Shown: in pieces, positions 1-37,376 of the stretch
Layout of the letters: each line of letters opens with the position of its first letter
Numbering within the stretch: position 1 is the first letter of the stretch
From: a virus
DNA length: 37,376 bases
IMG/VR virus record: IMGVR_UViG_3300045988_112792
Strand: one strand, 5' to 3'
Program-made: the position numbers and the translations under genes
Notes under the pieces: generated by a model
Told to the model about the DNA's origin: nothing
Databases searched by the model: none
The model's input: the letters and a program-made list of their open reading frames with translations, nothing else

Positions 1-119
1 CTTTTTTTTTGCAAAAATGCGTTTTTAGCTATTGACATTCGCGGCAAAAAGTAGTATAATATAGGCACGGACAAGATAAGCCGCGGGCGCGAAAAAGCGC
101 CGGGCGTGGAGGGTAAGAA
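1..119. repeat. Terminal direct repeat: bases 1-119 are identical to 37258-37376, so the window is one circularly closed or terminally redundant unit of 37,257 bp
   Basis: Compared base for base by eye. Both copies read C T9 GCAAAAATGCGTTTTTAGCTATTGACATTCGCGGCAAAAAGTAGTATAATATAGGCACGGACAAGATAAGCCGCGGGCGCGAAAAAGCGCCGGGCGTGGAGGGTAAGAA. Confidence 0.95.
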
Positions 120-120
120 A
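11..120 (+). promoter_or_regulatory. Promoter-leader cassette copy A
   Basis: -35 TTGACA 32-37, 17-nt spacer, -10 TATAAT 55-60. Conserved ATAGGCACGGACA follows the -10. Leader hairpin 80-105 (GGCGC/GCGCC stem, GAAAAA loop), RBS GGAGGG 108-113, ATG 121. Its upstream terminator lies across the circular junction at 37237-37267. Confidence 0.8.
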
Positions 121-333
121 ATGAAGCAAATTAGTTTGGACAACGGACACAGCTACATGGACGCGAGCGAGGCCATGACGGAGATTATGGAGCGTGGCCT
201 GTGGGAGACGGTCGTGAGCCTGATGGACGACGGTATACGCGAGGCAGTGGCGGACGATATGGCGCCCTGCAGCGAGGAAGAGTTTTTGAAGGAATATCTC
301 GCGCGTGCCAATGACGATTTGGTCGTTGGCTGA
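121..333 (+). CDS. Small, very acidic hypothetical protein (70 aa); cargo of cassette A
   Basis: ORF track 106-333. ATG at 121 sits 7 nt after GGAGGG, and the GTG at 106 overlaps that RBS. By my count about 17 D/E versus 5 K/R. No recognisable motif. Confidence 0.7.
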   Translation: MKQISLDNGHSYMDASEAMTEIMERGLWETVVSLMDDGIREAVADDMAPCSEEEFLKEYLARANDDLVVG

Positions 334-344
334 CGCGCGGCAAC

Positions 345-376
345 AGCAAAGGCCGCCCGAATGGGCGGCCTTTGCT
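345..376 (+). terminator. Strong hairpin downstream of 121-333 (probable intrinsic terminator)
   Basis: AGCAAAGGCCGCCC GAAT GGGCGGCCTTTGCT, a 14-bp perfect stem. The T-tract is weak and partly inside the stem. Confidence 0.6.
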
Positions 377-377
377 A

Positions 378-406
378 TTGCATATACACCGGTATTGTGA
401 TAATAT
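378..406 (+). promoter_or_regulatory. Candidate promoter of the exonuclease gene
   Basis: TTGCAT 378-383, 17-nt spacer, TAATAT 401-406. Shares the 13-mer TGTGATAATATAT (396-408) with the repressor promoter at 33769-33781. Confidence 0.45.
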
Positions 407-437
407 ATCAGTAATGCAATCTTTTTGGAGGGATAAT

Positions 438-1643
438 ATGGGATATATATTGATAGGCATAGTCGCGCTGCTGCTTTTTAGTCCCCTGATACTGCTGATA
501 CATGGTAAAGCGCCGGAACCAGAACCGGAACCAGAGCCGGAACCAGAGCCGGAGCCAGAGCCGGAGCCAGAGCCGGAGCCGGAACCGGAGCCGCCTAAAC
601 CAGCTCCGCCTAAAGTGCCAGCGGCGTTGAGGCAGAATATAATTGACTGTCCGTCCGACTATACCGTAATAGACTTTGAGACTACCGGCCTTGACCCGGT
701 AACGGACGCGATAACCGAGCTGGGCGCGCTGCGCGTGCGCGACAACAAGATTTCCGCTTCGTATCAAACGCTGGTCGATCCGGGTCGCCCGCTGCCAGCG
801 AAGATAGTGGAGCTGACCGGCATTACCGACGATATGCTAAAGGGCCAGCCCAAGCTCGAGGACGTGCTGCCGTTTTTTGTGGATTTTCTGGGCGACGATA
901 TAACGGTAGGGCACAACGTAACGTTTGATCTCAAATTTTTAGCCATGGCGCGCGAAAAGTGCGGTATGCCCAAAAAGGATTATAAGTGGATAGACACCTG
1001 CGCGCCTGCGCGCATAATCTATCCGGACGCGGGAAAGTATAGTCTGGATGCGTTGGCAAAGCACTTAAAACTTGGCGAGCCTCAGCACCGCGCCAATGCC
1101 GACATGCGCGTGACATACGCCATATTTTTAAATGAAATGGCGCAGATTACCAAGTACGACCGCATTTGGCCGATGCTTAAAGTGCAGTATGACGTCGATG
1201 CGCCCGCCGACGCGCGCTCGGCATGGGCGCGCCCGACAGACGAAAAGAGTGCGGATTTAACGCCGCTAAAAAATGAGTTGCGGTGGTGTGACGATTTTGT
1301 GCGCAAATATTATTATACGGATGTGCGCGCGCTGCGCGATGATAAGTGCGACGGCCGAAGCGTGGCGGCGGGCACGTCCTGTATCGTGCTGTACAGCGAC
1401 CTCGATAAGCGCGCAAATATTTTTGACGTCGCCCACCCCGAAAAACCCATAGGCTACCTCCCCCAAAACCGCTTAGCCGACATGGTGTGCGACTATACGC
1501 ACAACGTGGACATGGTGCTGGCGACCGCCGACGCGATAAGCGCGGGCGGCGCGGTAAATATGCTGGAGATGGCCTTTTACATGGATGAGGGTCCCGCCGA
1601 TGACGACGACTTTGACGATGATGACGACTTTTCGGACGATTGA
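438..1643 (+). CDS. Membrane-anchored DEDDh (DnaQ-like) 3'-5' exonuclease with (PE)13 linker, HIRAN-like C-terminal domain and acidic tail
   Basis: RBS GGAGGG 427-432 then ATG 438. N-terminal hydrophobic helix MGYILIGIVALLLFSPLILLIHG. Exo I VIDFETTGL, Exo II GHNVTFDLKFL, Exo III HRANADMRVT. C-terminal segment ...ANIFDVAHPEKPIGYLPQNRLADMV resembles HIRAN. Tail DDDDFDDDDDFSDD. Confidence 0.8.
   Translation: MGYILIGIVALLLFSPLILLIHGKAPEPEPEPEPEPEPEPEPEPEPEPEPEPPKPAPPKVPAALRQNIIDCPSDYTVIDFETTGLDPVTDAITELGALRVRDNKISASYQTLVDPGRPLPAKIVELTGITDDMLKGQPKLEDVLPFFVDFLGDDITVGHNVTFDLKFLAMAREKCGMPKKDYKWIDTCAPARIIYPDAGKYSLDALAKHLKLGEPQHRANADMRVTYAIFLNEMAQITKYDRIWPMLKVQYDVDAPADARSAWARPTDEKSADLTPLKNELRWCDDFVRKYYYTDVRALRDDKCDGRSVAAGTSCIVLYSDLDKRANIFDVAHPEKPIGYLPQNRLADMVCDYTHNVDMVLATADAISAGGAVNMLEMAFYMDEGPADDDDFDDDDDFSDD
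513..590 (+). repeat. In-frame hexanucleotide tandem repeat (CCN GAR)x13 encoding (Pro-Glu)13
   Basis: Read directly: ccg gaa cca gaa ccg gaa cca gag ... ccg gag. Followed by PPKPAPPKVP. Confidence 0.95.
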
Positions 1644-1650
1644 TTCAAAA

Positions 1651-1678
1651 GCGACTGCTAAAAAGCAGCCGCTTTTTT
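1651..1678 (+). terminator. Intrinsic terminator after the exonuclease gene
   Basis: GCGACTGCT AAAA AGCAGCCGC (one mismatch) followed by TTTTTT. Confidence 0.75.
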
Positions 1679-2045
1679 GTGCGCAAAAAGCTTGCGCGCA
1701 AGTCTGCCCCATGCTAAAATATCAGCGTGCGCAAAAAATTAATCGTTTAAGCATCGGCACCGCGCAATATCAAAAACGTTTGCGCCGGGCTTTGCTTTGC
1801 GGTTGATGTAGATTATGCGGCGGCGGACATCCGCATAGGCGTACACATGGGGCTGGTCGGGCGCACTAATCGTGTCATAGTAGTAGCCGCCATATCGCGG
1901 GCGGCTCTTGTCGGATCGCAATAATATCGCCCCCCAGTATACTTGATGGTATATTATATGCCAGTCAAGCATAAAATATACCATGCAGCGGTCATAATGC
2001 AAAATTTTTGCGTTAATGATAATACATAAAAGTAGGTGTAAGAAA

Positions 2046-3200
2046 ATGGCAGTTAAGAAGTACACGACGGCAGAACCCCGATGGCTTGAGCAGTACGGTA
2101 GATGGCAGGTCAACGTCCAAAAGGACGGACGGCGCAAAACCTTTTCGTCGTCCATCGCCGGGCGCAAGGGCAAGGCCGAAGTCATGGCGCGCGCGACAGA
2201 ATGGCTGCAGTCTATGGACGCGGATAACATCCGGCTCTATGCCGCGTGGGATCGGTTTATGGCCGATCAGCAAAAAAACACCGGCAAATCCAACTGGGTC
2301 AAGCATGACAGTCACTGGCGCACTCACATCAAGCCCACTATCCCCGACAAGCGACTGGACAGCGTGACGCCGTTTGAGTGGCAGGCGTGCATCAATCACG
2401 CGGCGCAAAATGGCGCGAGTAAACGCACTTGCATTAACGTGCGCGCGACGATTATTAGATTTAGATCGTTTTGCGAGCTTGAGCGTTTTGCGCATACTAT
2501 ACCGGCCGGTACAGTGCTCAAGGTGCCTAAAAATACTCGATTCAAAAAGCGCATTATCCTCCAGCCCGACGATCTATACCGTCTTTTTACCACGGATCGC
2601 ATTACTAAGACGGTATACGGTACGCATCTGCGTACCACGCCCATATACTATATACATGCGTGGCGATTTTTAGTTGCGACGGGCTTGCGCCCCGGCGAAA
2701 TCATACCCTTGACGCATGATAGTATCGGTAAAGGTGGCATTTTATATATTGACGGCAGCCGCAATATCTTAAACGAGCACACCGACGGCAAAAATCAAAA
2801 CGCAATCCGCAAATTTATATTGACCCCGCTTGCTTTGCGAATACTGGACGATCAGGCTGATATGCTTAAGCAGCGCGGCATAATATCGCCTTACCTTTTC
2901 CCGGCGCCGGATGGCGGTCAGATCATATCATCGCGCCTCACACGGGCATGGTGTGATACGCGCGGCAGTCTGGGCATTAAGTCTCGCATGTACGACCTGC
3001 GTCACACTTATGTCAGCGTTGTCAAGTCCGACGTCCCCGACCCACTTCTGCGCGCGACGGTTGGACATAGCACTAAGATGGACACCTATGCCGTGTATGC
3101 GCATGAGCTGGACGGCGACATGCAGCGTGCCGCCGACATGGCTGAGGTAGCTTTTGATAAGGTTTTAGGTGGTGATATTGCCAATCCAAAAACACGTTAA
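2046..3200 (+). CDS. int: Tyrosine recombinase (phage integrase)
   Basis: RBS AGGTG then ATG 2046 (ORF track 2016-3200). Catalytic signature LRPGEII (Arg), HDLRHTY (His-x-x-Arg), GHSTKMDTYAVYAH (His ... Tyr). Lies directly upstream of a tRNA-like fragment. Confidence 0.9.
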   Translation: MAVKKYTTAEPRWLEQYGRWQVNVQKDGRRKTFSSSIAGRKGKAEVMARATEWLQSMDADNIRLYAAWDRFMADQQKNTGKSNWVKHDSHWRTHIKPTIPDKRLDSVTPFEWQACINHAAQNGASKRTCINVRATIIRFRSFCELERFAHTIPAGTVLKVPKNTRFKKRIILQPDDLYRLFTTDRITKTVYGTHLRTTPIYYIHAWRFLVATGLRPGEIIPLTHDSIGKGGILYIDGSRNILNEHTDGKNQNAIRKFILTPLALRILDDQADMLKQRGIISPYLFPAPDGGQIISSRLTRAWCDTRGSLGIKSRMYDLRHTYVSVVKSDVPDPLLRATVGHSTKMDTYAVYAHELDGDMQRAADMAEVAFDKVLGGDIANPKTR

Positions 3201-3274
3201 AAAACACGTTTGAGTTCCGATACTTGCGTATGCCGTTTGGATATATATACGATTTGCATAAAATGAGCAGTATA

Positions 3275-3316
3275 AAAGCCGCTATTATCTGTGCAAATCA
3301 GATATATAGCGGCTTT
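3275..3316 (-). terminator. Long hairpin immediately 3' of the tRNA-like fragment (terminator-like on the minus strand)
   Basis: AAAGCCGCTAT ... ATAGCGGCTTT arms (3275-3285 / 3306-3316) with inner ATCTG/CAGAT pairing. A short T-run follows on the minus strand. Confidence 0.4.
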
Positions 3317-3319
3317 AAT

Positions 3320-3347
3320 TGGTGGAAGCGAGGGGAGTCGAACCCCT
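3320..3347 (-). other. 3'-terminal fragment of a tRNA or tmRNA (T-arm + acceptor 3' strand + ACCA): candidate attP core
   Basis: Minus strand reads AGGGG TTCGACT CCCCT CGCTTCC A CCA. No matching 5' acceptor strand or anticodon arm upstream, so it is a fragment. U at position 70 and A73 are compatible with tRNA-Ala or tmRNA. Confidence 0.7.
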
Positions 3348-3413
3348 AGCCAAAGCGCCGGAAAGCGTCCAAATGTAGGCACTTCACGGCGCTTTACAAA
3401 ATCCAAAAACCCG

Positions 3414-3455
3414 TCAAAAAACCCATTGATGCTGAAAAACGTCAATGGGTTTTTG
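3414..3455 (-). terminator. Bidirectional intrinsic terminator ending the Cys-repeat gene
   Basis: ACCCATTGA ... TCAATGGGT (3421-3429 / 3442-3450), flanked by an A6 run on one side and a T5 run on the other. Confidence 0.8.
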
Positions 3456-3484
3456 CATGTCGGCCAATGATTAAATTGTGCTGG

Positions 3485-4393
3485 TTAATCGTTGTCTAGC
3501 GTGCAGTTGTCGTCAAGCGTGCAGCCGTCGCCTAGCTCACAGTTGACGCCCAGTTCGCAACAGTCGCCCAGCTCGCAACAACTGCCCAGCTTGCACTCGT
3601 AGCCCAGCGTGCAGTTGTTGCCCAGCTTGCACTCGTCGCCCAGCGTGCAGTGGCTGTATAGCTCGCAACCGTTGCCCAGCGTGCAGTTGTTGCCCAGTTC
3701 GCAGCACATGACCAGTTCGCAACCGCTGCCCAGCGTGCAGCCGTCGCCCAGCTTGCACCCGCCGTATAGCTCGCAACCGCTGCCCAGCGTGCAGTTGTTG
3801 CCCAGCTTGCATCCGCTGCCTAGCCTGCATCTGCTGCCCAACGTGCAGCCGTCGCCGAGCGTGCAATCGCTGCCCAGCGTGCAGTAATTGCTCAGTGCGC
3901 AACACCTACCCAGCGCGCAGTTATAGCCGAGCTCGCAGTAATCGCCCAGTTTGCAACTGCTGCCAAGCGTGCAGCCGTCGCCTAGCTCGCAACTGCCGCC
4001 CAGCGTGCAGCCGTCGCCGAGCGTGCAATCGCTGCCCAGCTCGCAACACCTGTCCAGCGTGCAGTTGTCGCCGAGCGTGCAGCCGTCGCCTAGCTCGCAT
4101 CTGAAGTTCAGCCCGCACCTGCTGCCGAGCGTGCAGCCGTCGCCAAGCTTGCAGCCGTCGCCGAGCGTGCAATCGCTGCCCAGCGTGCAGTTGTCGCCGA
4201 GCGTGCAATCGCTGCCCAGCGTGCAATTGTCGCCGAGCTCGCAGTTGTCGCCCAGCCTGCAATCGTTCGCAAAAATCAGGCGCGCGTTATCGGCGCCAAA
4301 GTCTACTTTTGTCCAATTGCCGCTGGGCAGATGTTTATACCCGCACTCATCGCGCTCGATAGCCTTAAAATCATCCTGCTCGTAACACTTCAT
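3485..4393 (-). CDS. Acidic cysteine-rich hexapeptide-repeat protein (predicted left-handed beta-helix); cargo of cassette D
   Basis: RBS AAGGAG 8 nt before ATG 4393. A 46-aa N-terminal region is followed by 42 uninterrupted LGxxCx hexapeptides (LGDNCT, LGSDCT, LGDGCT ...). About 50 Cys, about 48 D/E versus about 19 K/R by my count. No signal peptide or TM segment. Confidence 0.85.
   Translation of the reverse strand: MKCYEQDDFKAIERDECGYKHLPSGNWTKVDFGADNARLIFANDCRLGDNCELGDNCTLGSDCTLGDNCTLGSDCTLGDGCKLGDGCTLGSRCGLNFRCELGDGCTLGDNCTLDRCCELGSDCTLGDGCTLGGSCELGDGCTLGSSCKLGDYCELGYNCALGRCCALSNYCTLGSDCTLGDGCTLGSRCRLGSGCKLGNNCTLGSGCELYGGCKLGDGCTLGSGCELVMCCELGNNCTLGNGCELYSHCTLGDECKLGNNCTLGYECKLGSCCELGDCCELGVNCELGDGCTLDDNCTLDND
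3500..4255 (-). repeat. Degenerate 18-bp tandem repeat x42 (coding, underlies the hexapeptide array)
   Basis: Units such as CAGCGTGCAGCCGTCGCC / GAGCGTGCAATCGCTGCC recur without interruption. They generate long shadow ORFs in other frames. Confidence 0.9.
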
Positions 4394-4504
4394 GCTTTTT
4401 TCTCCTTGCCCGGCGCTTTCCCGCGCCCGCGGCCTTGACTGTCCGTGCCTATATTATACTACTTTCCGCCGCGATTGTCAATACCAAATCGCACATTTTT
4501 TGCG
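4394..4504 (-). promoter_or_regulatory. Promoter-leader cassette copy D
   Basis: On the minus strand: TTGACA (4476-4481), 17-nt spacer, TATAAT (4453-4458), ATAGGCACGGACA, hairpin GCCGCGGGCGCGGGAAAGCGCCGGGC, then AAGGAG and ATG. Confidence 0.8.
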
Positions 4505-7180: not shown

Positions 7181-7295
7181 TTTTGTCCCTCCATGCCCGG
7201 CGCTTTTTCGCGCCCGCAGCCTTGACTGTCCGTGCCTATATTATACTACTTTACGCCGCGATTGTCAATACCAAATCACACATTTTTTGCAACAA
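7181..7295 (-). promoter_or_regulatory. Promoter-leader cassette copy E
   Basis: On the minus strand: TTGACA (7263-7268), 17-nt spacer, TATAAT (7240-7245), ATAGGCACGGACA, hairpin GCTGCGGGCGCGAAAAAGCGCCGGGC, GGAGGG. About 90% identical to copy D over about 115 bp. Confidence 0.8.
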
Positions 7296-33750: not shown

Positions 33751-33779
33751 TTGATTTTGTCCTGAATGTGTGATAATAT
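33751..33779 (+). promoter_or_regulatory. Repressor promoter (PRM analogue)
   Basis: TTGATT 33751-33756, 17-nt spacer, TAATAT 33774-33779. Overlaps the TGTGTGAT motif. Confidence 0.5.
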
Positions 33780-33804
33780 ATATGTATGGATTGGAGGTGA
33801 TACA

Positions 33805-34347
33805 ATGGCAGACACAATTAATGCTCGCTTTAGGGCTTTGCGCAAACGGCTCGACTTAACTATCGCGCAAATGGCGGATGTGCTGGGCTTGTCGCCGTCC
33901 GGCATATCGGCGATCGAGTGTGCACAGCGTAACGTTACTGATAAGCACATTCGGCTTTTGGCAAGTGCATATCCGCGCCTTAATGTCGAGTGGCTTAAAA
34001 GCGGCGAGGGCGATATATTTTTGCCTGAAAGCGACCATACAGGCAGTATAGATGATCTATGCGCTCAATACGGTCTTGACAGTATGGCCGCGTCTATGCT
34101 GCGCAGCTATGTCCAGCTTGACGCCGAGCATCGTCAGATGATACACGACTGGCTTATGGCGTGGCATGACGACTATGACAAGCGCAAGGCGCGCACCAGC
34201 GGCGGCGATGGCCAGACCGCCGACGATGCAGCGCCCTCCAGCGCAGACCCGGACGCCGACTTTAAACGGCAGGTGCTTGAGGGTCGCGCGCGGCACGAGG
34301 CATACATGGCCGCCCAGCGCGACGCCGAAAGCAAGCAGGCGCAGTAG
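33805..34347 (+). CDS. XRE-family HTH repressor (CI analogue), no S24 peptidase domain
   Basis: RBS GGAGGTG then ATG 33805. LTIAQMADVLGLSPSGISAIECAQRNV HTH. Divergent from the early operon. The C-terminal half lacks a Ser/Lys autoprotease signature. Confidence 0.8.
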   Translation: MADTINARFRALRKRLDLTIAQMADVLGLSPSGISAIECAQRNVTDKHIRLLASAYPRLNVEWLKSGEGDIFLPESDHTGSIDDLCAQYGLDSMAASMLRSYVQLDAEHRQMIHDWLMAWHDDYDKRKARTSGGDGQTADDAAPSSADPDADFKRQVLEGRARHEAYMAAQRDAESKQAQ

Positions 34348-34410: not shown

Positions 34411-34498
34411 TTGAAAAAAGCGCTTTAGGGTATTGACATTCGCGGCGGAAAGTAGTATAATATAGGCACGGACAATCAATAAATGGAGGACGAGAACG
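34411..34498 (+). promoter_or_regulatory. Promoter cassette copy C (lacks the leader hairpin)
   Basis: TTGACA 34433-34438, 17 nt, TATAAT 34456-34461, ATAGGCACGGACA, then GGAGG and ATG 34499. Confidence 0.8.
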
Positions 34499-35118: not shown

Positions 35119-35667
35119 ATGAAGTTTGATATTTTTGCCGTTGATAACGTTAACGGCGGTCGGTGGTTTTTCGATGTGCGTCCGGATGCAGATTGCATCC
35201 GGTACGCGGTGGACATCCCCGACGCGTACGACCCCGTTCGCGGCGACGATGGGCATATATCGTTGACGCGCGAGGGCGAAGAGTATTCGCTGGACGATAT
35301 TTTAACGGCCAACGACATCAATCAACCAGTCTTTAATTGGCCCTACATCACGGGAGACTGCGATGCGCCATGCGTTGCTTTGGAGGTGTTACCCAGCGGC
35401 GAGCGCGAGCCGTTGTCATGGCCGGAGGGCGTTGACGATTTGATAAGCCGTTTTGCGTCAATGGGGCTGCGCTTTAGCATCCACCCCGAGACCGGGCAGC
35501 TGGTAATCAGACCCGAGGATAGCGCCGCGCGGTTTGTGCGCAAGATGTATCCCAAAGAGCTTGAGGTCATCCGGTATGGTCTCAAAAACCGCTGGAATCA
35601 AAGGCGTTACGCTGAGCTTGCGCGGCAGCAGTCAACCGAAAAAGCCGCCGAAAAGGATGGGGAGTGA
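35119..35667 (+). CDS. Hypothetical protein (182 aa)
   Basis: RBS AAAGGAGG. Tightly coupled to flanking genes. No motif recognised. Confidence 0.65.
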   Translation: MKFDIFAVDNVNGGRWFFDVRPDADCIRYAVDIPDAYDPVRGDDGHISLTREGEEYSLDDILTANDINQPVFNWPYITGDCDAPCVALEVLPSGEREPLSWPEGVDDLISRFASMGLRFSIHPETGQLVIRPEDSAARFVRKMYPKELEVIRYGLKNRWNQRRYAELARQQSTEKAAEKDGE

Positions 35668-35669
35668 CG

Positions 35670-36245
35670 ATGATGATCTCCCTGAAGGACTATGCCGACA
35701 AGATCGGCAAGCCCTACCCCTTGGTCTACCAAAAAGCCGTGCGCGGCGGCTTTGAGACCGCGCAAAAGGTCGGCTCGCGCTGGGTGATAGAGGCCAGCGA
35801 GCCGTGGATTGATATGCGCGCAAAAGCAGCGCGCTACCCCGCCGCCGTGCCTGCCGATGCCGACGACTTGGTGCCCGTCGCTGACTACGCGCGCGACCGT
35901 GGTATAGACGTGCGCAACGTCGAGCGCAAGGCCGCCCGCGGCTCACTTAAGACGGCGCGCAAGATTGGGGATCGCTTGTACGTCAGCGCAAGCGAGCCAT
36001 ACACCGACGCGCGGACGCGCTCCCCGCTTGCGGCGCAGCGTGACACAAGCGCCGAGCCACGCCTGATACCGCTTGTTGAATACAGCGAGCGGCTGGGCAA
36101 GCACAAATCGCACATTTTACGTAAGGCTGCGCGCGGCGATTTTAAGACCGCGCGCAAGATCGGCGGGTGCTGGTACATCTCCGCCGATGAGCCTTATGTT
36201 GACCGACGCGTCATTTCTGGTGCGTACAAGGATTGGCGCAAATAG
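35670..36245 (+). CDS. Protein built from three tandem excisionase/MerR-type winged-HTH repeats
   Basis: Three ~55-aa units, each with (D/E)YA..(I/L)G ... RKAARG.(F/L)KTA(R/Q)K(I/V)G..(W/L)(Y/V).(S/A)(A/S).EP(Y/W).D.R. GGGGAG RBS before ATG 35670. Confidence 0.7.
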   Translation: MMISLKDYADKIGKPYPLVYQKAVRGGFETAQKVGSRWVIEASEPWIDMRAKAARYPAAVPADADDLVPVADYARDRGIDVRNVERKAARGSLKTARKIGDRLYVSASEPYTDARTRSPLAAQRDTSAEPRLIPLVEYSERLGKHKSHILRKAARGDFKTARKIGGCWYISADEPYVDRRVISGAYKDWRK

Positions 36246-36722: not shown

Positions 36723-36829
36723 GTAAAAATGCGCCTTTGCATATTGACATTCGCGGCGCAAAGTAGTATAATATAGGCACGGACAATCAAAGCCGCGGGC
36801 GCGAAAAAGCGCCGGGCGTGGAGGCGGCA
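36723..36829 (+). promoter_or_regulatory. Promoter-leader cassette copy B
   Basis: TTGACA 36744-36749, 17 nt, TATAAT 36767-36772, ATAGGCACGGACA, hairpin 36792-36817, GGAGG, ATG 36830. Confidence 0.8.
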
Positions 36830-37236: not shown

Positions 37237-37267
37237 GTGTCGCTCGTATGAGCGGCACTTTTTTTTT
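37237..37267 (+). terminator. Intrinsic terminator (copy 2)
   Basis: GTGTCGCTC GTAT GAGCGGCAC + T9. The T-run continues into the terminal repeat. Confidence 0.85.
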
Positions 37268-37376
37268 GCAAAAATGCGTTTTTAGCTATTGACATTCGCG
37301 GCAAAAAGTAGTATAATATAGGCACGGACAAGATAAGCCGCGGGCGCGAAAAAGCGCCGGGCGTGGAGGGTAAGAA
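37258..37376. repeat. Second copy of the terminal direct repeat (equals 1-119; contains the duplicate image of promoter cassette A)
   Basis: Identical to 1-119 by direct comparison. Confidence 0.95.

Follow-up and report, generated by a model that had tools for sequence, protein, structure and literature searches.

The stretch of DNA analysed here (37,376 nucleotides, hereafter the window) is a complete temperate phage of ~37.3 kb. On its lysogeny side, at 438–1643 on the + strand (ATG at 438, TGA at 1641–1643), it encodes a 401-residue protein assembled from five parts: a predicted N-terminal transmembrane helix, a (PE)13 plus PPKPAPPK spacer, a PolC-type DEDDh exonuclease, a C-terminal domain and a DDDDDFSDD tail. 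Judged from its sequence, the gene appears to be accessory cargo that is probably expressed in the lysogen from its own promoter, and its most likely role, which we favour tentatively, would be that of a superinfection-exclusion or defence nuclease. All features described below lie on the + strand unless stated otherwise.

The sequence features listed for this gene in a first-pass annotation were all found where that annotation had placed them. The entire architecture is also present in five full-length protein clusters (48–77% identity) and in one IMG/VR homologue (L092) at 96% identity. It is rare, being common to only about six protein clusters among the 5.8 billion proteins searched, all of them in the same genomic slot. 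Purifying selection is evident from a dN/dS of 0.05–0.33 in every domain; the outlier of 0.71 represents one saturated comparison of the short segment 246–284. The recurrence of the architecture and the dN/dS values thus show that the gene is genuine and under selection, as opposed to an open reading frame arisen by chance. Full-length homologues were not found in 185,579 GTDB species genomes, which returned exonuclease-domain matches only, at ≤43% identity apart from one short fragment at 53%. Likewise, blastn of positions 1–3500, tblastn of the C-terminal region and tblastn of a transmembrane HIRAN protein (P0127) yielded nothing useful among 50,697 GenBank phages. Two loci that matched beyond the exonuclease domain were rejected as relatives of the C-terminal domain, one (L055) being an exonuclease–BRCT protein and the other (L105) lacking a continuous open reading frame in the one frame translated.

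The DEDDh (DnaQ/PolC-type) 3'-5' exonuclease domain spans residues 77–230 (666–1127) and is matched by Pfam (RNase_T PF00929, E = 2e-33, 116.7 bits against a cut-off of 24, profile positions 2–164 of 164), NCBIfam (TIGR00573 dnaq, 105.6 against a cut-off of 71.5), PHROG 192 and the PADLOC DEDDh model. Alignment places D79/E81 in Exo I (DFETTG, 672–680), D164 in Exo II (HNVTFD, 927–929) and H217 and D222 in Exo III (HRANAD, H-x4-D, 1086–1103). All of these residues are invariant in 7/7 aligned sequences, which together with the Pfam score bears out the earlier reading of three DEDDh motifs. Among solved structures, the PolC-type exonuclease 2p1j is the nearest in sequence (E = 2.3e-33). The domain is hence assigned to the PolC type with a full catalytic set, and 3'-5' exonuclease activity is predicted. 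The full-length domain match and all five catalytic residues are shared with PolC/DnaQ-like DEDDh domains such as 2p1j, the N-terminal exonuclease of S. aureus DinG and Cas2-DEDDh. However, whereas those domains occur in polymerase, helicase or Cas2 fusions, the present one is located between a proline-spacer membrane anchor and a HIRAN domain in a lysogeny-side phage locus. The PADLOC model PDC-S48 aligned only with residues 74–268 (model positions 5–200 of 411, E = 2.1e-27), corresponding to its DEDDh half; no full-length match to PDC-S48 was obtained, and the C-terminal region alone gave no PADLOC match at all. The exonuclease is followed by an inter-domain segment (residues 246–284, 1173–1289) that carries a conserved W-A-R-P motif in the alignment and is of low confidence in the AF2 model.

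The C-terminal domain (residues 285–384, 1290–1589) is a divergent HIRAN domain, its membership being by fold and profile only; the HIRAN fold is a six-stranded barrel with a flanking helix. Pfam HIRAN (PF08797) was not matched at E ≤ 10 by the C-terminal region alone or by the homologues P0004–P0006, and scans of the region against Pfam, NCBIfam, PHROG and PADLOC returned no family. As a single sequence it retrieved nothing among PDB chains, and a word-indexed search of 5.8 billion proteins yielded nothing beyond a fragment of this protein itself. A solute-binding protein found when the own-family profile was compared with PDB chains was discarded as a chance match (E = 0.57). An exhaustive profile search of 1.84 billion representatives recovered three relatives (P0122, P0124 and P0125); the first two score above the Pfam HIRAN threshold in the aligned region, and the third falls below it with 20.1 bits. 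The own family aligned with its relatives over 98 columns (hhalign probability 97.7%, E = 1.4e-12), and the joint profile retrieved HIRAN chains only from the PDB (3k2y, E = 2.8e-4; HLTF, 0.014). AF2 modelling of the domain, in which one of five models was confident, gave a pLDDT of 87.1 and a pTM of 0.79. The top 15 Foldseek matches in the PDB were all HIRAN domains (HLTF, Rad5 and lp_0118; TM 0.60–0.69, probability 1.00), the next class being SmpB at 0.46, and the full-length AF2 model gave the same top matches. The fold is thus that of HLTF, Rad5 and lp_0118 (PDB 4s0n, 4xzf, 6l8n and 3k2y), with homology established via the Pfam-positive intermediates. A YxYxDV strand and a GY...DM..DY helix are common to this domain and one bacterial and phage HIRAN subfamily. 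The HIRAN-like character noticed earlier in residues ~280–400 is consequently upheld by fold and profile, albeit not by a direct Pfam match and not in its 3'-OH pocket motif, which is lost.

In the HIRAN domain of HLTF, Tyr72 and Tyr93 pinch the bases and Asp94 binds the 3'-OH (PMC5773155). The Tyr/His-Asp pair is not conserved in any allele of the present family in either alignment register (MAFFT, hhalign). In place of the canonical EPxNxYDxNA pocket loop, which in HLTF contains the base-pinching Tyr93 and the 3'-OH-binding Asp94, all alleles have Y-[SN]-[DE]-x3-R-A, with an invariant Arg at the position of HLTF Asp94 or Asn96, depending on register. What corresponds to the R71-Y72-Y73 region of HLTF, an aromatic YxY strand, is retained. 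The domain is also acidic, with a net charge of -5 to -9. As Y93 and D94 are not conserved, the binding of free 3' ends, which the first-pass annotation had cited for HIRAN domains in general, cannot simply be transferred.

At the N-terminus, residues 3–22 (444–503) are predicted to form a single transmembrane helix; AF2 models them as helical, and residues 3–21 are strongly hydrophobic, with a Kyte–Doolittle mean of 2.83 over 19 residues, in agreement with the membrane anchor proposed previously. The N-terminal flank of the helix is free of charge, and H-[G/R]-K follows directly after it. All relatives with transmembrane helices carry 3–5 K/R after the last of these, which places their HIRAN domains in the cytoplasm. 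By such rules of thumb, an N-out/C-in topology with a cytoplasmic catalytic part is predicted. A cleavable Sec signal peptide was considered and rejected on account of the missing basic n-region, the lack of an A-x-A-like site and the K/R after the helix. The opposite orientation, N-in/C-out, would make the protein an extracytoplasmic nuclease on a signal anchor, with the spacer spanning the wall and outside DNA degraded before it crosses the membrane. Membrane-anchored extracellular nucleases do occur in Gram-positive bacteria, the acidic flank (4–5 D/E within 15 residues after the helix) could favour translocation, and the EP-then-KP spacer resembles the periplasm-spanning region of TonB, although the TonB_N match is weak (homologue P0004, E = 8.4). 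Against this stand the absence of a positively charged n-region, the K/R after the helix, the predicted cytoplasmic HIRAN domain of all transmembrane relatives and the seven cysteines in the soluble part, secreted proteins of Gram-positive bacteria being depleted in cysteines. Moreover, to our knowledge no DEDDh enzyme acts as a secreted nuclease, and we regard this orientation as very improbable.

The helix is followed by a perfect (Pro-Glu)13 repeat (residues 26–51, 513–590) and by PPKPAPPK (residues 52–59, 591–614), as reported before and as confirmed here by both translation and Tandem Repeats Finder (512–593, period 6 with 13.7 copies; period 12 at 92% matches). This spacer (513–614) is probably extended, of an acidic and then basic proline type. 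Its length varies among homologues: the distance from residue 24 to a conserved LRQ motif is about 26–40 residues, and the 96%-identical L092 allele has two PE units fewer. The comparison of repeat length between related prophages, suggested by the first-pass annotation, thus reveals a length polymorphism.

The protein ends in an acidic tail, GPADDDDFDDDDDFSDD (residues 385–401, 1590–1640), with a net charge of about -11. A terminal DDDxSDD is conserved among the full-length protein clusters; the last residues are D-F-S-D-D in the window and in 4/5 of these clusters and D-L-S-D-D in P0003, and the 96%-identical IMG/VR copy ends in DDDFLED. The C-terminal tip of SSB is an acidic run ending in D-D-D-[IL]-P-F-COOH, whose terminal Phe carboxylate is recognised by partner proteins. 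The tail described here resembles the SSB tip and the tails of T7 gp2.5 and T4 gp32 in being an Asp-rich C-terminus with interspersed Phe on an OB-like nucleic-acid-binding fold. However, it closes with FSDD-COOH and lacks both the terminal P-F and the Phe carboxylate. Of the SSB-like tail described earlier, the conserved acidity therefore remains; since the end, ...DDDFSDD, is without the defining feature of the SSB tip, the accompanying suggestion that it hijacks SSB partners is unsupported. The tail also bears on the possibility of an abortive-infection toxin, in which a nuclease restrained by the membrane tether and the acidic tail would be freed or activated upon infection and would degrade the DNA of both cell and phage. 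Such a scheme fits a prophage-encoded, non-specific and potentially dangerous exonuclease with two possible restraints, and elsewhere in bacteria HIRAN domains accompany HipA-type toxin kinases (candidate defence system PDC-M03). Still, the neighbouring genes include no protease, sensor or antitoxin partner, the sequence shows no evident means of release, and a DnaQ-type 3'-5' exonuclease would be a poor killer of circular chromosomes. We consider this outcome improbable.

The ends of the genome are identical over 119 bp, and in the circular form the repressor block (33.7–37.3 kb) consequently lies directly upstream of the gene. The resulting order is a repressor-like gene (33766–34347), an excisionase-like gene (35664–36245), the acr-like gene, the exonuclease gene and an integrase gene (2016–3200; tyrosine integrase, Pfam PF00589, PHROG 1). 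As the first-pass annotation had stated, the gene is therefore on the lysogeny side, and the repressor-like, excisionase-like and integrase genes share its orientation. The same synteny, with the integrase as conserved downstream neighbour, was observed in 7/7 homologous loci that extend past the gene. The upstream neighbour (121–333) encodes a 70-residue homologue of the AcrIC5 (anti-CRISPR I-C) family (Pfam PF22147, E = 1.5e-10, 41.5 bits against a cut-off of 27), and an AcrIC5-like gene also precedes the homologue in L001–L004. More generally, the slot just upstream of the exonuclease is occupied by different small genes in related phages (70, 119–120 or 138 residues). The first-pass annotation had overlooked the AcrIC5-family identity of this neighbour.

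The exonuclease gene and the acr-like gene differ in their transcription signals. Sequence reading located a hairpin, AAAGGCCGCCC-GAAT-GGGCGGCCTTT, between the two genes (348–373); its stem is invariant in six homologous loci, and it is likely to be the terminator of the upstream transcription unit, missed by the terminator scan because it has no T-run. It is followed by a putative extended -10 promoter (378–406) consisting of TTGCAT (378–383), a 17-nt spacer and TG-n-TAATAT (398–406), with TG-n-GATAAT at 396–404 as an alternative register. This promoter was not flagged by the consensus scan because its -35 hexamer matches at only 3/6 positions. The block 394–417 nevertheless shows no variation across six loci that share only 46–67% identity in their coding bodies. 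A Shine–Dalgarno sequence, GGAGGG (427–432), lies 5 nt before the ATG, and an intrinsic terminator, GCGaCTGCT-AAAAA-AGCAGcCGC plus TTTTTT (1651–1678), the core of which is listed by the terminator scan, follows the gene. This terminator is conserved in six loci, with its loop inverted from AAAAA to TTTTT in two of them. Read from these signals, the gene is a self-contained unit with its own predicted promoter, Shine–Dalgarno sequence and terminator, in line with the earlier claim of a separate promoter. The acr-like gene, for its part, is preceded by a perfect sigma70 promoter (TTGACA-17-TATAAT, 32–60) within a 41-nt cassette (32–72) that precedes five transcription units, including the acr-like gene, and that is absent from the exonuclease gene. 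The hairpin in the leader of this repeated cassette is of unremarkable stability (z = -1.2), and an Rfam scan of the window returned no family.

This arrangement bears on a role in counter-defence, in which an early or post-induction protein would, together with the AcrIC5-like protein, remove a nucleic acid needed by host immunity; 3'-tailed ends used by end-sensing systems, reverse-transcriptase cDNA and CRISPR prespacers are candidate targets. The adjacent, co-oriented AcrIC5-family gene and the variable small upstream genes, which resemble an anti-defence hotspot, speak for such a function, as do the strongly acidic character of the protein and its DNA-mimic-like tail. Conversely, the hairpin and the separate, different promoter uncouple the exonuclease from the acr gene, the 41-nt cassette is not used, and a membrane anchor would be of no obvious use to such a nuclease. 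Furthermore, relatives that combine a transmembrane anchor with HIRAN are located immediately after CI-type repressors, an arrangement suggestive of expression in the lysogen. DEDDh enzymes need a free 3'-OH, so cyclic signalling nucleotides, a further conceivable target, would not be opened. On balance, counter-defence appears unlikely.

The same setting is relevant to a function in the DNA metabolism of the phage itself, as a proofreading, recombination or end-processing exonuclease acting in replication, integration/excision or packaging and sited, like those processes, at the membrane. The similarity to PolC/DnaQ proofreading domains, the PHROG 192 annotation ('DNA polymerase exonuclease subunit') and the presence of the gene in all known members of the lineage, always beside the integrase, are compatible with this, and in eukaryotes HIRAN functions at replication forks (PMC5773155). 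However, the gene lies outside the replication module (on the other strand, about 25–33 kb), is equipped with its own promoter and terminator, and has no adjacent polymerase partner. Among near-identical genomes, the sole hyper-divergent, domain-shuffled gene would hardly be expected to encode a core replication enzyme. We also know of no described proofreading subunit with a transmembrane anchor, a PE spacer and an acidic tail, and judge a role of this kind to be quite unlikely.

The divergence of the gene is pronounced, its body forming an island of 46–67% DNA identity within phage backbones that are 88–99% identical. The exonuclease and HIRAN alleles reassort among homologous loci, and dS is saturated between alleles and differs by domain within a pair, indicating the exchange of old alleles. 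Positive selection was rejected as the source of the island in view of the dN/dS values, the one saturated outlier included. The combination of divergence island, allele reassortment and low dN/dS is typical of conflict loci, a pattern that would fit counter-defence as well as defence.

Its closest relatives are small HIRAN proteins, mostly with a transmembrane anchor (P0125, P0127, P0128, P0129, P0131, P0122 and an open reading frame of L194). In 6/6 loci examined, these relatives reside in lysogeny modules of temperate phages, and in four of the six the HIRAN gene directly precedes the integrase and/or follows the repressor, with ≤1 gene between. Thus, a CI-like repressor, a transmembrane HIRAN protein and an integrase follow one another in L007; the HIRAN gene follows the repressor in L009, L010 and L193 and directly precedes the integrase in L194. 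The small anchored proteins belong to the same HIRAN subfamily as the present domain and occupy the same slot, between or beside repressor and integrase; N-terminal transmembrane helices are followed by a basic patch and often by a proline-rich linker. In contrast to the protein described here, they lack both the exonuclease and the acidic tail and retain the canonical pocket motif of HIRAN. No characterisation of such small proteins of temperate phages was found. It is possible, although we are rather doubtful, that membrane-anchored HIRAN proteins constitute an unrecognised prophage class of exclusion or defence proteins acting on entering DNA ends, of which the present gene would be an 'armed' derivative. 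On this model, the rigid, length-variable PE tether would let the enzyme patrol the inner face of the membrane, a free DNA end at the membrane would be the sole, geometric cue for telling self from non-self, and the invading DNA would have its 3' end destroyed. The retooled HIRAN domain, its pocket lost, would serve as an exchangeable specificity determinant, which would account for its being the most divergent and allele-shuffled part of near-identical phages.

For the favoured role in superinfection exclusion, the following mechanism can be envisaged. The N-terminal helix would insert N-out/C-in, leaving the remainder of the protein in the cytoplasm, and the extended proline–glutamate/proline–lysine spacer would tether the catalytic part ~8–13 nm below the inner face of the membrane. 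There, the exonuclease would trim free 3' ends of entering linear DNA, such as the leading end of an injected genome or a cohesive 3' overhang, and the trimmed invader would neither circularise nor replicate. The circular chromosome and the integrated prophage would present no free ends at that site. The divergent HIRAN domain could act as a substrate- or target-recognition module, its 3'-OH pocket having been lost; such a pocket would otherwise rival the exonuclease site for the same end. The simplest view of the acidic tail is that of a DNA mimic acting in cis, which might occlude the DNA-binding surfaces until substrate arrives. The intact DEDDh set, the HIRAN homology, the predicted topology, the self-contained unit, the lysogeny slot, the slot of the relatives and the conflict-locus pattern make this role plausible. 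The slot between repressor and integrase is the classical place of exclusion genes of the Sie2009/Ltp type. In addition, bacterial HIRAN domains have been proposed by Gerdes and colleagues to sense phage DNA ends (PMC8262856). Several observations weigh on the other side. With the 3'-OH-binding residues absent in all alleles, end recognition is not assured, and the HIRAN domain is acidic. The AcrIC5-family homologue directly upstream makes the neighbourhood at least partly a counter-defence locus. No known defence-system model in PADLOC matches beyond the exonuclease domain (for PDC-S48, residues 74–268). Finally, as the gene occurs in every member of a small phage lineage, it may serve a core function instead of being a moron.

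Known exclusion proteins such as Sie2009 of lactococcal P335 phages, Ltp of the S. thermophilus phage TP-J34 and SieA of P22 block injection and have no enzymatic domain. They resemble the present protein in genomic slot, predicted membrane association, probable expression from the prophage and the proposed failure of incoming DNA; however, there is no sequence similarity, and a nuclease is carried only here. Likewise, no characterised Sie protein emerged as a relative from PHROG, Pfam, NCBIfam or PADLOC, which gave exonuclease families only. The membrane-sited systems Zorya (ZorAB with ZorC/D) and Kiwa destroy DNA locally at its point of entry. The concept of coupling membrane localisation to local attack on invading DNA is the same, but those systems are multi-gene, with motor or sensor components and other nucleases, whereas a single polypeptide with no detectable sensor is found here. 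A link between DEDD-superfamily nucleases and HIRAN in mobile or defence contexts is known from Gram-positive genomic islands, where DEDD 'diDNase' genes associate with HipA–HIRAN pairs (PDC-M03; PMC11706625). In those clusters, however, the nucleases are Orn/Rexo2-like dinucleases encoded by separate genes beside a HipA kinase. Membership of the present gene was rejected, given that it encodes a PolC-type exonuclease instead of an Orn-like one, that this is fused to HIRAN, and that no kinase is encoded in the vicinity.

If correct, the exclusion reading would amount to one-gene immunity with a new logic, in which enzymatic destruction of DNA is confined to the site of entry by a physical tether and no sequence recognition, modification or separate sensor is required. 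It would also provide a first function for the HIRAN domains of bacteria and phages, which have been known from genomes since 2006 but never characterised, and would point to a wider family of small, mostly membrane-anchored HIRAN proteins in the exclusion slot of Gram-positive temperate phages. Were the protein instead a counter-defence or replication factor, the architecture would still be undescribed and the wider significance smaller. The length-polymorphic PE spacer would lend itself to use as a natural 'molecular ruler'.

With regard to the host, an attP-like core on the - strand (3318–3347) is identical to the 3'-terminal part of clostridial tmRNA (ssrA) genes. An exact 27-mer of this core occurs in 56 GTDB contigs, nearly all from Clostridia, with a local match of 30 nt, and ARAGORN calls a tmRNA at the matching sites. 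As the identity stops after ~30 nt, the host is assigned to class level only, and the hosts are probably gut Clostridia. These bacteria are hard to manipulate genetically, and a barrier to linear DNA would matter for both transformation and phage-based tools.

The exonuclease-HIRAN gene runs on the plus strand from an ATG at 438 to a TGA at 1641-1643, encodes 401 residues and is preceded by a Shine-Dalgarno sequence (GGAGGG, read from the sequence) 5 nt before the start codon. The N-terminal features proposed in the first-pass annotation held up. The hydrophobic helix is evident at residues 3-21 (19 residues; Kyte-Doolittle mean 2.83), and residues 3-22 form a helix in the AlphaFold2 model. 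The perfect (Pro-Glu)13 spacer occupies residues 26-51 and is followed by PPKPAPPK, the underlying 6/12-nt repeat being detected at 512-593 by Tandem Repeats Finder. With an EP run and then a KP run, the spacer resembles that of TonB; among homologues its length varies (~26-40 residues between position 24 and the conserved LRQ motif), and it differs by two PE units between the window and the 96%-identical allele. The three DEDDh motifs reported earlier lie in a Pfam RNase_T match over residues 77-230 (E=2e-33; score 116.7 bits, cut-off 24), and the catalytic residues D79/E81, D164 and H217/D222 are invariant across all homologues aligned. The domain is also matched by PHROG 192 and the PADLOC DEDDh model, is nearest to PolC and DinG-type exonucleases in NCBIfam, and has the PolC-type exonuclease 2p1j as its closest solved structure by sequence (E=2.3e-33). 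A protein with such an exonuclease domain might be an enzyme of phage DNA metabolism, a reading that we regard as distinctly unlikely.

The C-terminal region gave no family match in Pfam, PHROG or PADLOC scans, and nothing was returned by either a PDB sequence search or a word-indexed protein search. A profile built from six family members, searched exhaustively against 1.84 billion representative proteins, yielded two family representatives and, beyond them, only four distant proteins; three of these four match Pfam HIRAN exactly at the profile-aligned place (P0122 and P0124 above the gathering score, P0125 below it). Searching again with the joint alignment added seven further proteins, four of them annotated as HIRAN, and the PDB sequence matches of the joint profile were HIRAN chains only. 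Likewise, hhalign of the family alone against the HIRAN relatives gave 97.7% probability (E=1.4e-12, 98 columns). The AlphaFold2 model of the C-terminal domain, based on a 15-sequence alignment, reached a pLDDT of 87.1 and a pTM of 0.79, only one of the five models being confident; its 15 best PDB matches in Foldseek were all HIRAN structures (HLTF, Rad5 and L. plantarum lp_0118; TM-scores 0.60-0.69, probability 1.00), and the low-confidence full-length model retrieved the same top matches. On the basis of the profile searches, hhalign and the predicted-structure matches, homology to HIRAN and a predicted HIRAN fold are thus considered established. The HIRAN-like pattern recognised at first pass was correct, albeit without a direct Pfam match.

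In HLTF, Asp94 binds the 3'-OH, and Tyr72 together with Tyr93 pinches the two terminal bases (PMC5773155). These pocket residues are located in an EPxNxYDxNA loop, which is kept in all small phage relatives and replaced by Y-[SN]-[DE]-x3-R-A in every allele of the exonuclease-fused family. No conserved Tyr-Asp is present in the HIRAN domain of this family in either alignment register, and an invariant arginine, R325, aligns with HLTF Asp94 or Asn96, depending on the register. The domain is moreover acidic, with a net charge of -5 to -9. With the pocket residues replaced and the domain acidic, 3'-end binding cannot simply be carried over from HLTF; the HIRAN-like label given at first pass is right as to the domain, but the binding of free 3' ends known for HIRAN domains may or may not apply here.

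Net charge over the final 17 residues is about -11, and the terminus DDDDDFSDD-COOH is conserved among homologues (DDDFLED in the 96%-identical one). SSB tips end in [IL]-P-F-COOH, the terminal Phe being recognised by partner proteins. This defining end is missing from the protein, which terminates in FSDD without P-F, and the SSB-like tail of the first-pass annotation survives as a conserved Asp-rich terminus but not as an SSB tip. By analogy with SSB, T7 gp2.5 and T4 gp32, a more economical guess is that the tail acts in cis as an autoinhibitory DNA mimic, in which case it would serve as a brake on the nuclease. An abortive-infection toxin kept sequestered is another conceivable identity for the protein, though an improbable one.

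With regard to topology, the N-terminal flank of the helix (M-G) is uncharged and H-[R/G]-K follows it. The single-helix relative P0127 has ARAGKRK after its helix, and the two-helix relatives P0122, P0125, P0128, P0129 and P0131 have K/R ahead of helix 1 and 3-5 K/R behind helix 2. By the positive-inside rule, these flanking charges place HIRAN in the cytoplasm. A cleavable Sec signal peptide was rejected on sequence grounds, since the basic n-region and the A-x-A site are missing. In combination with the seven cysteines of the soluble part, the charge pattern and the lack of these two signals favour an N-out/C-in arrangement with a putatively cytoplasmic enzyme, and we accordingly give very little credence to an extracytoplasmic nuclease.

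The window begins and ends with the same 119 bp (1-119 and 37258-37376), indicating a complete circular phage assembly of ~37.26 kb (about 37,257 bp), in which the right-end genes lie directly upstream of the left-end genes. Read in this order on the plus strand, an HTH_3 repressor-like gene (33766-34347) and an HTH_17 excisionase-like gene (35664-36245), each followed by two unknown genes, precede a gene of the AcrIC5 family (anti-CRISPR type I-C; 121-333) encoding an acidic 70-aa protein (Pfam E=1.5e-10, above the curated cut-off). The exonuclease gene follows, and downstream of it lie a small minus-strand ORF (1742-1972), between its terminator and the integrase, and the tyrosine integrase (2016-3200, plus strand). 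The gene order on the circular genome confirms that the exonuclease gene is co-oriented with repressor and integrase. A candidate attP core at 3318-3347 on the minus strand comprises 30 nt identical to the 3' end of tmRNA (ssrA), covering T-arm, acceptor stem and CCA. A 27-mer of this core is present in 56 GTDB contigs, almost all of them from Clostridia, and the tmRNA 3'-end matches include Christensenellaceae, Oscillospiraceae, Saccharofermentanales and Mageeibacillus. Given this identity downstream of the integrase, the phage is temperate, and it probably integrates into ssrA of a Clostridia host.

The exonuclease gene appears, from its sequence signals, to be an independent transcription unit. 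A hairpin at 348-373 (plus strand) separates it from the acr-like gene, its extended -10 promoter block TTGTGATAATAT is invariant in six loci, bearing out the suggestion that it has its own promoter, and a canonical terminator, found by terminator scan and conservation, lies at 1651-1678 on the plus strand. The small minus-strand ORF beyond has equivalents of 60-62 aa in L001, L005 and L192, three of the homologous loci, in a region showing about 90-98% identity among phages. PHROG gave no match for it, and no Pfam match is recorded for its homologues; it might be a regulator or merely a conserved non-coding region.

Among 5.8 billion protein clusters the full architecture is common to P0001-P0006 and one fragment only. 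One further copy, 96% identical, is found in IMG/VR, and the architecture was not found in GTDB species genomes or in GenBank phages. Seven homologous loci continue beyond the gene, and in all of them (7/7) it is located immediately ahead of the same integrase. The preceding gene differs between loci (70, 119-120 or 138 aa): an AcrIC5-like gene occupies this slot in L001-L004, and unrelated genes of 119-138 aa occupy it in L005, L006, L191 and L192. Both the AcrIC5-like neighbour and the variable slot would suit a counter-defence factor, which we nevertheless consider unlikely.

DNA identity between the window and L001 is 88-99% over the acr gene, promoter, TM-coding region, terminator and integrase, and drops to 46-67% between roughly nt 500 and nt 1600. 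Similarly, promoter, 5'UTR and TM-coding part (window 340-520) are about 90% identical to L001, L005, L092, L191 and L192, and the tail, terminator and downstream region (window 1590-1760) are about 85-100% identical in all six loci; the stretch between these two parts is only 46-67% identical, so that conservation shifts abruptly within the gene. The two transitions coincide with the PE repeat and the poly-Asp tail, which may act as recombination junctions. Three exonuclease alleles (A, window; B, P0002, P0003 and P0004; C, P0005 and P0006) and three HIRAN alleles (alpha, window, P0002 and P0003; beta, P0004; gamma, P0005 and P0006) are seen in the combinations A+alpha, B+alpha, B+beta and C+gamma, HIRAN being the most divergent module (alleles 33-41% identical). 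Every domain has a dN/dS of 0.05-0.33, apart from a value of 0.71 for the short segment 246-284 in one saturated comparison, and between alleles dS is saturated. This indicates alleles that are old and functional and have been exchanged through recombination at conserved flanks rather than created by hypermutation, a pattern typical of genes in genetic conflict that does not indicate the side.

The HIRAN relatives, small proteins from unrelated temperate phages, are 134-176 aa long and have a canonical HIRAN domain and, in most, N-terminal TM helices (one or two in several; a TM2 domain in L194); P0126 of L009 lacks a TM helix and has a CxxC in its N-terminus. All six loci examined (6/6) lie in lysogeny modules: CI-like repressor, TM-HIRAN, integrase in L007/L008 (HIRAN gene at L007 6001-6465); repressor, HIRAN in L009 (2083-2490); repressor, DUF4352, HIRAN in L010 (1984-2427); HIRAN adjoining an antirepressor and HTH gene in L011 (157-675); CI-like repressor, HIRAN, TM protein, serine integrase in L193 (3920-4324); and TM2-HIRAN, integrase in L194 (3767-4297). 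The repressor/integrase slot is where Gram-positive temperate phages keep exclusion genes, e.g. sie2009 and ltp. Taken by themselves, these proteins seem to make up a prophage cargo family that is uncharacterised, and a wider family of mostly membrane-anchored HIRAN proteins possibly lies behind the studied gene.

Our best-supported reading, possible rather than probable, is that the protein is expressed from the prophage and works as a cytoplasmic 3'-5' exonuclease tethered to the membrane, attacking linear DNA close to where it enters the cell, with HIRAN as a targeting module retooled so that it would no longer sequester the 3'-OH needed by the nuclease. Every sequence feature noted at first pass is confirmed, and the first-pass interpretation holds in part: its domains and genomic context are retained, its SSB-tip idea is dropped, and end-binding by HIRAN is left uncertain. 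Gerdes and colleagues suggested sensing of phage DNA ends as a possible role of HIRAN domains in bacteria (PMC8262856), and DEDD dinucleases have been reported to be associated with HipA-HIRAN pairs (PMC11706625), although these belong to another nuclease subfamily and differ in gene organisation from the studied gene. Neither this architecture nor HIRAN proteins with a membrane anchor were found described in the literature searches. The gene would represent an undescribed architecture among prophage accessory nuclease or exclusion genes, a kind already known, and the exclusion-nuclease hypothesis is a clear one and cheap to test.

A 41-nt cassette, TTGACATTCGCGGCnnAAAGTAGTATAATATAGGCACGGAC, consisting of a perfect TTGACA-17-TATAAT promoter and leader, precedes five other transcription units and not the exonuclease gene. 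Its five occurrences (≤1 mismatch; 0 expected by chance) lie at 32-72, 34433-34473 and 36744-36784 on the plus strand and at 4441-4481 and 7228-7268 on the minus strand, with 37289-37329 as the terminal duplicate of the copy at 32-72. A GC hairpin follows three of the copies read (32, 34433 and 36744), and the same terminator (TAGTGTCGCTCGTATGAGCGGCACTTTTTTTT) precedes two (32 and 36744). The units may form a co-regulated early or accessory regulon; among the separate units so headed are the AcrIC5-like gene and, just across attP from the integrase, a minus-strand gene at 3485-4393. The latter encodes a cysteine-rich protein of 302 aa made almost wholly of hexapeptide repeats of the left-handed beta-helix type (C-[TE]-L-G-x-x; Pfam Hexapep E=9e-60; PHROG 5353, annotated unknown), and its DNA has an 18-nt period in about 38 copies.
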